Program-made: the position numbers and the translations under genes
Shown here: piece by piece, positions 24,579 to 33,261 of the stretch
Numbering within the stretch: the first letter of the stretch is position 1
Layout: each line of letters begins with the position of its first letter
The notes under the pieces: generated by a model
What the model was told of the DNA's origin: nothing
Databases searched by the model: none
The model's input: the letters and a program-made list of their open reading frames with translations, nothing else
NCBI GenBank assembly: GCA_000002445.1
Contig: CM000208.1
Span: 3,520,001-3,584,000, forward strand
DNA from: Trypanosoma brucei
Taxonomy: Eukaryota
Length of the DNA stretch: 64,000 nucleotides
Direction: 5' to 3'

Positions 24579-26384
24579 CCTGATAATGCAAAAAGGTGTG
24601 CGATACTTCCTGAGAGAAAAATATATATAGCAGTAAGGAATTATTTAGCAAAAAATAATTTTTTGCGGTGAGGGTTAATAGTTTAGTAGTTATCGATGAT
24701 GTACTTACAAAAATTCTTTATTATGCTAACATATCTATCTTTCTTTTTGGTGAAAGAAATTTAAGCAGTTATAATTGACTCATGTTGATTCCATATACCC
24801 TTCTTGACGCTGAGTGTTTTTTTAATTTCGTTTATCACCTTTTGCATCTTTTTTTCTTGTAGCCACGGGACACCACCAAAATATTCCTGTTATTACCATC
24901 AAAAGCATTGAGGAAGGACGAGTAATCTACACTATATATGCAAATCTTGGCTCAATGTTGTCATTAGTCATACGGTCCATATGCACCAGACGCGGCTAGT
25001 CGGGCCGAAAAATGCGTGCAATTTTCTCAACCAATCTTTCTGCACGTAGACGCATGCCCTTAAATGTTCGTATATTTACGTATACATGTATATTTGGGGC
25101 ACTTGATATTCGATGCGTTACAAGGAATTCCTTGTTTCCTCTCCGTTTAAATGCCTACGAGAAATGAAAAGTAGATTGGGGGAAATACACACAGCTGCTT
25201 TGCCTAAGTTTTGCCTTGTTTTTCTATATAGTCTAAACAACAATACTTTAATTCATGCCTAAATATCCATTTTTATGTACCTCATTGCAAAAGATGAATC
25301 AATCTGAAGAAAAATAATGTAAATATGAAAGGGATGTGAGAAACCACGCTGACACAGGAAAGTAACAAACAATTTAAGAGGAAGGCACCAAGTGCATGAG
25401 ATAAAATGTTTAGATATAATTTTATATCAAGATGGAGCACACATGCGCAAATGGCAACTACCTCGGTTGGTCAACAAAAACTCTCTTACGGAGAGTGGGC
25501 GACAGAAGTCACTTCTGAGAACCTGAAAACGGGTGAAACAATGCGAAATTGCGCTCATATATACAGTTCCGTGCTCATATGCATACGTTTAATACGTTAT
25601 TCGTTTTTCGTCTCGCTTGTTTTCCAAATTACCGGCACCTACGATGTGTATGAAAGAGAAAGTCAAAAGAACTAAGAAAGAAAAATCCGAAGATGGTCAA
25701 GAGTACTTCGGAATTAAAATCATCGCATAGCGAAACTCAAGCACTTCGGGACCCCCATTTAACAAAGTTCGTGTAGTTGGCCAAGCGACTATCTCAATTC
25801 TGACTATGCCTTCCATACAAATCGCCTTTAATTTTCTTTTCACCTTTTAATATGAAAGTTACCATCAATCTTAGATATAGCAGCATCAGCAGCAAACGGC
25901 ACGTCCAATATATCAAATGACCGATTATTTCTGTTGCACTTAAAATAAAGAACGTCAGTGGTTGTTTCAATCGCAGCAGGACAGATACACGTTTTCTGAC
26001 ACTAGAGCGTCCAGTGAATTAACTACTTCCACCACGCGTGCTTCATTGATCACGATTAGTTAAGTGTGTGTGGGAAAACGGTAACCTTAGGGTTCATGTC
26101 TCCGGTAGCTGAACCTCAAATTTTTCACTTATCACCCACTACACAACTTCACATTTTAAACATAGCCGGTGCTCGCAGAACTATTTCCGTGATCTTCTTT
26201 TTACTATTCTTTCCCTATCACATTGATTCGTAGAATGCGTTTAAGTCACCCCAATGAATAAACTCAAACCTTTCAAGTGTCTTAGAAACCGGAGAGGTGA
26301 TCTCACACCCACGACTACATCCCACTACAGGTGGGGAAATCCTCCTTTTAGGTGCATCTACAACAATCTGAAGATCCAAACCTA

Positions 26385-26396
26385 CCCCCCCCCCCC
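26385..26396. repeat. C12 homopolymer (G12 on minus strand)
   Basis: Read directly. Confidence 0.8.
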
Positions 26397-28117
26397 AAGT
26401 AAAACCCTTATGTGACAAAAACAAGGTCCCTATACGCATCAGAAACTGCATAAACCAAACGATGTACCGCACAAGCTGAAAGTTCTAGCTTTGTACCGAT
26501 ATATCATCGTTACTGTTATAGCAATTAGATCCGTGAAAGAAGTTCAAACTGTATCGAGCGTCAAGAAGTAGCGTCCATAAATGGTAATTATAATAATATA
26601 CGGCCAGTTGTCACCGTGCGAAAACGCAACTCATATATTAGCACCGCTTCCAAGATGGAGATGGTCTGAACATGGGGAACGACCCTGACGGAAAGTATCG
26701 TGAGGTTCCAAAGCCCATCAGGGCTAAACCCCGCAGTCCATATACTCGACTCGGTCACGGGGGTGCATAACGAAATCAGCATCACCACCGTCCGCAACAA
26801 GAAACCCCTGCGGATACCTTTCACAGAGTAAATAAAATTCTCTAAACAAAATTACCTTAGGATGTTGTGTCACAAAAACAAACTAAACCCAGCATCCACT
26901 AGGCCTCTGCACCTTTTCCAGTAATATATCGGATGAATCGGAGCGCTGAGTCGAACGCGGTACTCTAGGTTAGGCATTTCATTTCCTCTCACGGTACCAA
27001 CGCCTCGCTTTTTTTTTATAATTCATTGCTTTGTGGCATGCGAGGCGTAAAGCTCAGCCGCCGCTCTCTTAGAAGCGGTCCTGCCTTCATTAAGACATTT
27101 GGTGTGTCAGCGACATTATCCGTGCTTCTTTCATTGTGAAATCTAACCGTAGTCATAGTAGCAGGCAAATGTCTTCCTCCATTGCCAACAGGACCTCCAT
27201 ATTTATTTTTTATTTAAAAGCCTTTAGTCTGTAAAGTTACGCTGAACTCCTGACAAACAGCAGCACAATGAGTATGATCTAACAATCCACTGGACAGAAC
27301 AGTGGCAGCACGCTCCACATGTCACTCATCGAACAATGACCGAATTTTCCATATTTCTATCTCCTCTAAATTCACATCACCGAGCTCATGTTTTTCTCAA
27401 GCATTACTCAACATGGAAACAAATCCGCTCCACACATCATTTTTTTCTGTTAACGGCGGCAAACAAGCGACAATGATTATTACCCGAAGTCGGTAGTAAA
27501 AGAGTGTCCATGGCCCTAACGCATAGCTTTTCATGCGACCATCCAGCCTTCCGTACCATAACTGATACCCTTCAGACACTCCAACGGCGATCGAGCACAA
27601 AACTATCCTTGTTCATGCTCCGACACGCATCCGCTGGCAATAACAACCAAATATCTTATTGATAAAACCAGAATTTCCATGAAAAAAGAGATAATCCATA
27701 GAGGAAAGTTGGTTCACCCACTGGCATCGCACTTTCAGATTTTGGTAGGTTGACGCAGTATTACTTCAAACAATCACCAATTCCCTGGACGATACATGCG
27801 TCATTACATTTTATTTTCGAAGTTCCCACATTGGTATAAAGCCACAGTTTTCATTGACCCACCGAACCGAGAAAGAAAATCATTTCGGTACCGCCTTAAC
27901 GATGAACGTTTTTCTCTTTTTTTTTTTTAGCAATGCCCGAAGAAACCTCACTCTTCTATACAGCATTGTTAGCTCCATAGCGGTCGATGAGACTGTGAAC
28001 GCAACGTTTCCCGTAAAGATATCGGCACACGTCCATTTAAAATAATATCAAGTCAGCAGCTGCTGCTGACACTTAAACTCCCGATTCCTTACAAAAAAAG
28101 AGAGGGAAAAGAGAAGT

Positions 28118-28230
28118 TCTCTCTCCCTCTCTCTCTCTCTCTCTCTCTCTCTCTGTGTGTGTGTGTGTGTGTGTGTGTGTGTGTGTGTGTGTGTGTGTGT
28201 GTGTGTGTGTGTGTGTGTGTGTGTGTGTGT
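28118..28230. repeat. Compound dinucleotide microsatellite (CT)~18 followed directly by (GT)38
   Basis: Read directly: ctctccctct(ct)n to 28154, then (gt)38 at 28155-28230. Confidence 0.95.
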
Positions 28231-31200: not shown

Positions 31201-33180
31201 ATAGTTACAAAAGTGTGTGTCTGTACGGCAGCGGATATTTCTCCAGTCCCCAATCGCTTCGGTTGCTTTTACTCTTTTGAAGCACGGTTCGGAAAGCGGT
31301 AGCTCAGTGCACTTCCATGGAAATAGCGATCACAGACAGGATATCAGTTGTTTGTCTGAGCTGACGTGGGCATGAAACAGTATCATGTGCTGTCTTTTGT
31401 CGGCAGTGACCAAATGTGTCAAGGCGAGCCTCGGGGAATCGTTTTGCTGTTCCTGTTGTGGCTCCTACTTTCCGTGGGGAGGGTAAGCGGAAGCGAGCGT
31501 GTCAGTTCAAGGAATTGAAGAAGGTGCACTGTTACGCGGACAAATTCGCGTCCGGGAATACTCCAACTAACAACCACACACGCACACTGCTCTTCCACCT
31601 GAGGCTGTTACGCCAGTTCCCTTTCAAGTGGCGTTGAGCTGATCAACCTCTGCTGCAGACGAGAAATTGCTCTGAAACAAGGGGCAGGAGACGATCCTTT
31701 CCCTAACCGCCTGTCTCAAAGAGCGATTTGCCTTTCCGGAGGACCTAACCTCATTTCGCTCACTCTTTGGGAGATGAGTCGGGAGTCTGCCTTGGCACCA
31801 CCACTGCAAAGTAGTTTTGACGGGTCTTGCGTCGTCGATGGGTCCGCCTTCGCGTATCTGGAGTCCCTCCGAGGATTCCGCATGTCCGAGTGCAGGTCTG
31901 TGGCGCGCCCCAGGGCGAGTTCATGTGGTGGCGCTGCCGCTGAAGCCTAGTGTTGCTGCGGGTGGTTTGCAGGTGCTCAGTTTTCTTTTCCGGAGGGAGG
32001 CATCTGGTCGTGGTGCCTTTGCGATTTAATGTTACGGCCGGGCTGTACAGTGTCCTCCCCGTAGACCGTAAGGACATCAAGCGAATCTTTTTTTATGTTG
32101 TTGCCGGTGCGCGGAGCTTTTGCCTCCGTTCTGGTTATGTTGCTTATAGTTCTTGGCCGTGAGGTGGCGGCTTTCTTCGCTTGCGTCGTCGGCGTCTCAA
32201 TCGGCGCCGAGTGCTATTCGCGTTTCTGAGGATAGAAGATTGCCCTCATTGTCTCTTGAGCCGCTTCCGTGAGAGGCGCGGCTGCCGGCTATGGAGAAGT
32301 GTAGAGACTGGCTGTGCCCGCCGCGATGAGTGAGAATTGGCAGCTAATCTGTAGCTGCTCTGTACGGTCCTGGCGCTATTTGAGGTATGGGTCCGTTGAA
32401 ATTGAAGCACGTAGGCTTTCGGCCTTAAAATGTGTTACCCGCTTTTGTGGGAGGTGTTGCCGTGGGGCGAAGAGCGGCTTGCTTTCGGGGAGGGCTGCTT
32501 CAGATAGCTATCTCTAACTCCTTTGAATTTTCCAATGGTCGTTTTCGTCGGTCACTGTCATCGCACGGTCGGCTACGCATCTTCCTTTTCATTTGTCGGA
32601 TCTCGCTGCCACAGATCTTTTGCGCGGTCCCCTCTTGTGGTTTTAAAGACAGCGATTGCTTGTCGCACTAGTTGCCATTATTGTTGTTTTGGATGAATCG
32701 TACCGCACCCTCGTCCAGTCCTTTAGCACGCCTCGCTGCAGGTTCTTTCACTGCTCTTCGCCCACCTTTTACGCTGAGGTGTTGGTGGTGCGAGGACAGG
32801 TTGGTAATTTGACTCCTAGGGCGTTTTTGTCCGTTTTCAGTGCTCTTCTGCTGCTACTTCTCATGGCGTATATGCGGTTGCTGTCGCTTCTTGTCCCTGC
32901 TATTCCTGCGTTTCCGACTGCCTTTCGCTGACTGTGCGTGTGCGTAGCATTCCGTATCCTCTGAGACTATTTTAGGGATGTAGGAACTGAACCTTCATGC
33001 AGCAGAAGGCCGTACCCCTTCCACAGTGTGCTTCACGGAGCTTCTTCATGTGACTCTATATCTTGCACTTCTTCTGGTGAGCTGCGGTTTCAGAAAGGTG
33101 CTCGTGCGGCCCCTCCCCTTTCACTTCGTGATATCGTGTTCGATGCTTGGTCTTTTCTTTTTGATTGCTAACCGCATATG

Positions 33181-33245
33181 TTTTTGTTTCCTCCCTTATC
33201 ATACCCCTCGGTGACTCGATATTGTGGGGATTTTGTTTTGTCTTA
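33181..33245 (+). promoter_or_regulatory. Polypyrimidine tract and downstream AG (candidate trans-splice acceptor) for the first gene of the plus-strand unit
   Basis: tttttgtttcctcccttatcatacccctc ... cttag, 17-80 nt upstream of the ATG at 33262. Confidence 0.4.
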
Positions 33246-33261
33246 GGAAAATACGAAGAAT

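Follow-up and report, generated by a model that had tools for sequence, protein, structure and literature searches.

The subject of this study is the gap between annotated genes at positions 24579-33261 (Tb927_10_v4 about 3,544,579-3,553,261) of a 64-kb window, the whole stretch of DNA analysed, from chromosome 10 of Trypanosoma brucei brucei TREU927. This gap is very probably a composite locus. It comprises a known divergent start region of RNA polymerase II (Pol II) and, in its left third, the transcribed remnant of a decayed gene in which a CrtC-lipocalin portion was fused to a polyprenyl synthase. The annotated distance of 8.7 kb is thus inflated, because what appears to be a dead gene lies inside it.

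Open reading frames (ORFs) with an ATG start and at least 200 amino acids are all minus-strand in the interval 528-24578 and all plus-strand in the interval 33262-58383. This bears out the change from minus to plus orientation around the gap described in an earlier note on this DNA. The locus is a divergent strand-switch region (SSR), with two polycistronic units pointing apart. The minus side carries an ADP/ATP carrier array of three identical 307-amino-acid ORFs (20895-24578, minus; EAN78848-50). In this unit the annotated ORFs begin with Tb10.61.1810, the carrier copy closest to the SSR. Tb10.61.1790, which encodes a LYR-family protein, opens the plus unit and is followed by the gene of a GNL3-like protein. 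A splice acceptor AG is predicted at 33245-33246, behind a polypyrimidine tract and 15 nt before the LYR ATG. The window was assigned to its chromosome by exact protein-sequence matches, and the Tb927_10_v4 position minus 3,520,000 gives the window position. The offset follows from Kolev Table S2, which puts Tb10.61.1800 at Tb927_10_v4 3548843-3549205 (window 28843-29205), and is confirmed on the left side by the poly(A) site of the carrier gene and the length of its 3′ untranslated region (Kolev Table S13).

The earlier note interpreted the divergent SSR as a Pol II start region, and the published catalogue agrees. Table S14 of Kolev 2010 lists both units, as "Tb10.61.1810 to Tb10.61.2745, minus, Divergent" and "Tb10.61.1790 to Tb10.61.0280, plus, Divergent" (PMC2936537). 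In the same study, 5′-triphosphate tags are enriched at every divergent unit with histone marks (Kolev 2010, PMC2936537). Domains of H2A.Z extend about 10 kb over the first genes of each unit, and initiation occurs at the 5′ ends of the domains (Wedel 2017, PMC5579346). In the literature, H2A.Z/H2B.V, H4K10ac and related marks cover about 10 kb to either side of such regions. The chromatin of the present SSR is presumably that of such a start region; the reporter locus of Wedel 2017 is a different one (chr10:800,949-810,167; PMC5579346). Like other divergent SSRs of T. brucei, the locus has head-to-head units, no intact or RNA genes between them, and an excess of G and T on the coding strand of each side, and nothing essential differs. 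Genome-wide mapping in 2009-2010 gave about 70 divergent Pol II start regions for T. brucei; this locus belongs to them and raises no new question. The start site has been catalogued since 2010, and the core interpretation is correct while its novelty is nil.

The composite reading is as follows. Pol II would initiate in both directions, as from a broad, dispersed promoter poor in motifs. The interval 24.6-27.7 kb is already part of the minus unit and yields two processed non-coding RNAs, Tb10.NT.162 and Tb10.NT.163. The latter would be transcribed from a unitary pseudogene whose intact ancestor opened the minus unit. T. cruzi, T. theileri and Leishmania tarentolae have an intact copy of the fusion gene, T. 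vivax has a frameshifted one, and in T. brucei it is close to erasure.

A putative pseudogene and its counterparts

The relic was detected with a family profile hidden Markov model (HMM) of 761 positions, built from 35 members. A search of the six-frame translation with hmmsearch gives a single match at 27708-26866 on the minus strand (profile 205-480; 34.9-38.2 bits, E 2-3e-13). A sliding profile scan of six frames over the 64 kb brings up nothing above 3 bits except colinear pieces at 27750-27037, and the best score in 200 shuffles of the region is 2.3 bits. A weak match to profile 668-710 at 26313-26176 lies in the frame of the relic and within 3 codons of the colinear expectation. The T. 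cruzi protein finds 27684-27067 (minus) by tblastn, with an E value of 2e-6, about 23% identity and in-frame stops. The orthologous site in T. b. gambiense scores 33.2 bits on the same profile.

The relic carries 8 in-frame stops in the 281-295 aligned codons and 24 in the 572 codons of the extrapolated footprint. In the same 295 codons the other two frames have 23 and 15 stops, and shuffles have 18.7 +/- 4.3 (P<=0.004). Despite heavy substitution, the relic stays in one frame over about 1.5 kb, with no net frameshift. The segment 26866-27750 is very probably the recognisable core of a decayed pseudogene of a CrtC-lipocalin/polyprenyl-synthase gene.

Position and strand agree with this assignment. 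The orthologous loci of other trypanosomatids were retrieved through the LYR protein. In T. theileri, T. cruzi and L. tarentolae an intact gene of 735-747 amino acids separates the carrier from the LYR gene. It is on the strand of the carrier, and the relic has the same place and strand. The intact gene opens its unit in the three species and contains the Pfam domains CrtC N-terminal lipocalin, Lipocalin_9 and polyprenyl_synt. The flanking genes, their orientation and a skew flip inside the SSR are shared among these loci; they differ from the T. brucei locus in that the minus unit starts with the intact gene. Their SSRs vary in length (T. theileri, 1.2 kb; T. cruzi, 3.3 kb; L. tarentolae, 7.3 kb), and no non-coding similarity to the SSR of T. 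brucei is detectable in any of them. The same flip in SSRs whose non-coding DNA cannot be aligned fits a dispersed, motif-poor promoter with a compositional signature.

T. vivax has a frameshifted pseudogene of the fusion gene directly upstream of its carrier array. The pieces lie in three frames and score 70, 105 and 170 bits. This pseudogene is an intermediate state of decay, and together the two relics would mark a metabolic gene loss common to T. brucei and T. vivax.

Several points weigh against the composite reading. Only 3 of the 35 family members find the relic individually by tblastn at E<0.05. The general Pfam models have no match in the relic translation, and the family-specific profile alone sees it. 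Neither the N-terminal third (the first 200 residues) nor the greater part of the polyprenyl-synthase domain is securely recognised in the relic. A protein-database search with the T. cruzi protein returns 54 homologues, from stercorarian trypanosomes, many metagenomic sequences and bacteria; T. brucei, T. congolense and T. vivax contribute no intact protein to this set, in a search limited to the protein database. The mapped 5′ end of Tb10.NT.163, at 27676, has a polypyrimidine tract upstream and no preceding AG, the nearest AG being 22 nt downstream, and this coordinate may therefore be approximate. The initiation zones proposed below, within 27.7-33.2 kb, are placed by base composition and by this same 5′ end.

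Some of these points would suit a match that arises by chance or from composition, with 24.6-28.1 kb merely a long 5′ intergenic or untranslated region of the carrier array. The identity of only about 23%, the silence of the general Pfam models, the few single sequences that succeed and the lack of direct similarity between the T. vivax pseudogene and the T. brucei relic (tblastx and blastn) speak for such an artefact. The score of 35-38 bits, compared with at most 2.3 bits in the shuffles and the rest of the window, speaks against it, as do the exact position and strand predicted by synteny in three species and the clear T. vivax pseudogene in the same slot. Stop depletion in the relic frame only and the second weak match, colinear and in frame, are also at odds with chance. 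An artefact is scarcely credible on this evidence.

The pseudogene is probably unitary, as judged from the protein database. It shares with other unitary pseudogenes the syntenic position and strand, the family-specific homology, the in-frame stops, a less decayed pseudogene in a relative and the absence of an intact copy among the proteins of the species in that database. It differs from typical ones in that it comes first in a polycistronic unit, adjoining a Pol II start region, and is still matured into a spliced-leader-capped and polyadenylated RNA. A literature search on the gene IDs, the pseudogene and the enzyme in trypanosomes found no relevant paper and none that mentions the pseudogene. 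It appears to be unannotated, and this result is only mildly new.

Processed transcripts of the minus unit

The novel transcripts of Kolev 2010, to which Tb10.NT.162 and Tb10.NT.163 belong, are stated to be trans-spliced and polyadenylated (PMC2936537). A canonical polypyrimidine tract and AG stand directly upstream of the 5′ end of Tb10.NT.162 at 25303. Tb10.NT.163 spans the detectable relic and its presumed 3′ end, and its most fitting interpretation is as RNA transcribed from the dead gene. In this way an unannotated unitary pseudogene would explain a published orphan transcript, and the gap would not be a uniform spacer.

The presence of these RNAs changes two statements of the earlier note. 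The carrier array, described there as the first gene of its unit, is the first annotated ORF only, and two processed RNAs and the putative dead gene precede it. The region called ORF-free has no intact ORF beyond chance, and to that extent the description stands; the pseudogene (26866-27750, minus) and the published processed transcripts between 24707 and 27676 qualify it. The outcome is similarly divided for a conserved coding gene inside the gap, whose discovery would, by the earlier note, refute its reading: a gene conserved in other trypanosomatids is present, but it is apparently dead here. From the first processed RNA on one strand to the first on the other, the distance is about 5.5 kb (27.7-33.2 kb), not 8.6 kb, because Tb10.NT.163 begins at about 27.68 kb. 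This is comparable to the 3.3 kb of T. cruzi and the 7.3 kb of L. tarentolae. The usable promoter interval for reporter dissection is accordingly 27.7-33.2 kb, not 24.6-33.3 kb.

The two RNAs might instead be functional and under selection, as regulatory long non-coding RNAs (lncRNAs) or micropeptide mRNAs. Both undergo trans-splicing and polyadenylation and reach about 2.6-3 copies per cell, and for about 1.5 kb the relic holds to a single frame, its net frameshift being zero. Divergence between T. b. brucei and T. b. gambiense argues otherwise. It is 1.2-1.8% in the transcripts, not below the 1.2-1.7% of other intergenic DNA and above the 0.8-1.25% of coding sequence. Neither RNA occurs in the Kolev tables of conserved, peptide-supported or strictly non-coding transcripts (PMC2936537), and T. 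vivax has no sequence similarity to them. A selected function is very unlikely on these grounds.

A wider proposal, which is rather improbable, is that salivarian trypanosomes lost an enzyme conserved from bodonids to T. cruzi and Leishmania and that the corpse of its gene templates Tb10.NT.163. In a stronger form, the sequence or its transcript was co-opted. Co-option would explain why the relic is still recognisable and has gained no net frameshift in about 1.5 kb, and the role could be that of a promoter-proximal spacer, of start-region chromatin or of an lncRNA.

Base composition and proposed initiation zones

A flip of the GT-AC skew inside the gap, predicted by the earlier note, exists. 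Summed along all 64 kb of the window, GT-AC skew reaches its minimum at 29427; the left part has a skew of -0.072 and the right part one of +0.126. The components turn separately, T-A at 28115, at a compound microsatellite, and G-C at 30467. The turnover of asymmetry thus spans 2.4 kb, from 28.1 kb (T-A) through 29.4 kb (combined GT-AC) to 30.5 kb (G-C). The plus strand at 28234-29400 remains C-rich (C 33%, skew -0.12) and is "minus-like" in this respect. The stretch 29.4-30.6 kb is skew-neutral, and rising G/T richness, chiefly of T over A, follows up to the LYR gene.

The size of the skew is not unusual. Segments of the SSR have values of 0.11-0.12 on the left and 0.21 at 31.8-33.26 kb, and for ordinary intergenic DNA of the flanking units, taken in 200-nt windows, the coding-strand value is +0.114 +/- 0.116, with a 95th percentile of 0.28. 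The magnitude in the SSR is within the ordinary intergenic range of the locus.

The (CT)n(GT)n tract of the earlier note is present and was measured as (TC)18.5(TG)40. It is about 116 bp long in TREU927 and about 32 bp, roughly (CT)8(GT)8, in T. b. gambiense DAL972; the T. equiperdum scaffold is interrupted at the microsatellite. Since the extrapolated ancestral coding sequence would cover about 26034-28332, the microsatellite would lie where the dead gene once encoded its N-terminal part. As a microsatellite the tract is ordinary and length-polymorphic, and it marks the T-A turn and not the overall flip, which had been placed there.

In the original form of the proposal, the whole 8.6 kb is one homogeneous start region whose halves meet at the tract, and GT-rich elements drive initiation outward. 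The T-A turn at 28115 and the direction of (GT)40, on the plus strand toward the plus unit, agree with this, and 10-mers that flank (GT)n are among those for which Wedel Dataset EV1 gives coding-strand enrichment at start-region 5′ ends. The combined minimum at 29427 and the G-C turn at 30467 do not, nor does the minus-like composition of 28.2-29.4 kb. Two processed transcripts and the pseudogene fill the left 3.1 kb, and the tract is reduced to about (CT)8(GT)8 in T. b. gambiense. The 10-mers themselves are also not enriched. Counts of the 157 published coding-strand 10-mers (Wedel 2017 Dataset EV1, PMC5579346) give 16 on the coding strand and 7 on the non-coding strand of the 8.7-kb SSR. The coding-strand density is about 1.8 per kb, compared with about 2.0 and 5.4 per kb in the coding strands of the flanking units, a comparison to be read with the caveat that the EV1 enrichment is one of strand against strand within start regions and not of start regions against unit bodies. 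The high 10-mer density of a GT-rich promoter element is absent from the SSR, and the 16:7 strand bias has the expected direction. A start region centred on the tract is very unlikely, and the skew around a microsatellite locates the divergence point poorly.

The composite reading places initiation differently. Tb10.NT.163 receives its spliced leader at 27676, so that minus-strand initiation has to be somewhere to the right of this position. It may be concentrated in the 28.2-29.4 kb block, which is G-rich on the minus strand, and 29.4-33.2 kb would be the zone of plus-direction initiation, both as suggested by base composition. Coding-strand G-runs and 10-mers of (GT)n flanks are enriched in the first fifth of start regions (Wedel 2017, PMC5579346). 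The present locus resembles these GT-rich elements in that a G12 run (minus) and (GT)40 (plus) point outward. It differs in that the G12 run is inside a processed transcript, Tb10.NT.163, downstream of where minus initiation must lie, and in that the 10-mer density is not raised.

Gene content, variation and other observations

Table 1. Positions of the features discussed, in window coordinates except for the last row
Feature	Position	Strand	Basis and remarks
ADP/ATP carrier copy nearest the SSR, Tb10.61.1810	23655-24578	-	exact match EAN78848-50; naming of Kolev Table S6/S14
Tb10.NT.162, 596 nt	24707-25303	-	Kolev Table S7, 3545303->3544707; 2.59 RNAs per cell (procyclics)
Tb10.NT.163, 2268 nt	25408-27676	-	Kolev Table S7, 3547676->3545408; 3.04 RNAs per cell
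Extrapolated ancestral coding footprint (putative)	about 26034-28332	-	colinear extrapolation from the HMM alignment
G12 run inside the relic	26385-26396	-	minus coding strand; GGGGGGGGGG is the top coding-strand 10-mer in Wedel EV1
Core of the putative decayed pseudogene, CrtC-lipocalin/polyprenyl-synthase fusion	26866-27750	-	profile HMM positions 195-480 of 761, one frame
Compound microsatellite, (TC)18.5 at 28118-28154 and (TG)40 at 28154-28233	28118-28233	+	TRF
C-rich block (G-rich on the minus strand), GC 0.54-0.60	28234-29427	-	composition; 11-16 C3+ runs per 500 nt
120-amino-acid ORF Tb10.61.1800 / EAN78851, "hypothetical protein, unlikely"	28843-29205	+	exact match
Putative plus-direction side of the SSR	29428-33246	+	cumulative skew minimum 29427; segment compositions
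Hypervariable patch in the middle of the SSR	30700-31300	.	comparison of T. b. brucei and T. b. gambiense
713-amino-acid LYR-family protein gene, Tb10.61.1790 / EAN78852	33262-35403	+	exact match; Pfam Complex1_LYR; Kolev Table S14
T. vivax pseudogene	L010 6437-8511 (GCA_021307395.1 SOPI01000403.1)		annotated only as a 143-amino-acid polyprenyl_synt fragment, 8095-8526

Tb10.61.1800 is the sole annotated ORF within the gap and, with 120 amino acids, also the longest ATG ORF in 24579-33261. Composition-preserving (block) shuffles of the gap have a longest ORF of 126.9 +/- 30.2 amino acids, and 51% of them reach at least 120. Tb10.61.1800 was rejected as a gene, given its chance-level length, the lack of a Pfam match and the lack of a detectable transcript (Kolev Table S2). 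A cluster of small RNA genes (transfer, small nuclear or small nucleolar RNA) at the boundary was also rejected: ARAGORN finds 0 transfer RNA genes, and no Rfam family reaches its gathering score, the only matches being three at chance level with E values up to 1.

The GA-rich stretch and the start of the CT tract at 28088-28142 (agagagggaaaagagaag/ttctctctccctctctc) form an imperfect inverted repeat. It gives sub-threshold microRNA-like Rfam matches (E 0.08-0.5), which are almost certainly a low-complexity artefact.

Three ORFs of 105-108 amino acids are annotated in the SSR of T. b. gambiense DAL972 (L001 5585-5911, 7614-7934 and 8498-8815). Two of them appear to match the chance-length window ORFs 30875-31195 and 31760-32077 (minus), which are not in the protein collection and have no family match. 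These short gene calls are likely over-annotation.

Variation within the gap is concentrated in its middle. T. b. brucei and T. b. gambiense differ by 6-14 substitutions per 100 bp in 30700-31300 and by about 1-2 elsewhere, and divergence over 30601-31800 is 4.4%. The T. equiperdum scaffold has a gap at 30787-30958, and a separately scaffolded piece of that genome (L008 4650-5121) is an 85%-identical alternative copy of 30998-31458 with an unrelated left flank. This hot spot could stem from old haplotypes, from a paralogous copy or, at the divergence point, from local hypermutation.

Such variation is also relevant to the proposal that initiation alone does not account for the size of the SSR, which would reflect a degenerate mobile element (ingi/RIME/DIRE) or another chromosomal function, for example that of a replication origin or of a centromere-like element. 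The hypervariable 30.7-31.3 kb with its 85% alternative copy in T. equiperdum and an ingi-like element that one T. vivax contig carries 1.3 kb upstream of the LYR gene favour a mobile element. For an origin, ORC1/CDC6 binding and replication origins reportedly coincide with unit boundaries in T. brucei. Against this stand the lack of any Pfam domain in all six frames of 28300-33261, the lack of similarity to the T. vivax retroelement protein, where tblastn of the T. vivax SSR ORFs and the ingi-like ORF against the window gave no match, and the lack of AT-rich repeat arrays. There are also no internal or window-wide repeats save the flank of the carrier array. An ingi/RIME/DIRE remnant was rejected on the Pfam scan of 28300-33261 and on the tblastn and repeat searches of the window, and the proposal as a whole has a very low probability.

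The T. vivax SSR is itself unusual. It measures about 18.6 kb from the carrier to the LYR gene, and its centre holds a 3.1-kb inverted repeat with arms 99.7% identical and a spacer of about 0.8 kb (L002 998-4076, L010 1177-4254). Each arm has outward ORFs of 187/247, 368 and 241 amino acids, with no Pfam match. The repeat could be real, or it could be a palindrome artefact of long-read assembly. T. vivax contig SOPI01000017.1 (L003 3383-8641) has a 1752-amino-acid ORF with endonuclease and reverse-transcriptase domains, belonging to an ingi/L1Tc-like retroelement without long terminal repeats. The element lies about 1.3 kb upstream of the LYR gene and is missing from the chromosome-scale contig L002; the insertion is polymorphic and falls within the plus side of the SSR.

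Inside the plus unit, at 58400-62950, lies a gene-free stretch of 4.6 kb whose plus strand is very strongly T- and GT-rich. Kolev 2010 lists no internal start site for it, and the novel transcript Tb10.NT.164 maps within it, to 61750-62687 (PMC2936537). The stretch holds T-rich tandem repeats and two plus-strand G-quadruplex (G4) motifs, and the cumulative GT-AC maximum of the window is at 62818. It has 15-39 matches to the Wedel EV1 10-mers per kb, and by this measure it is more "GT-rich" than the SSR.

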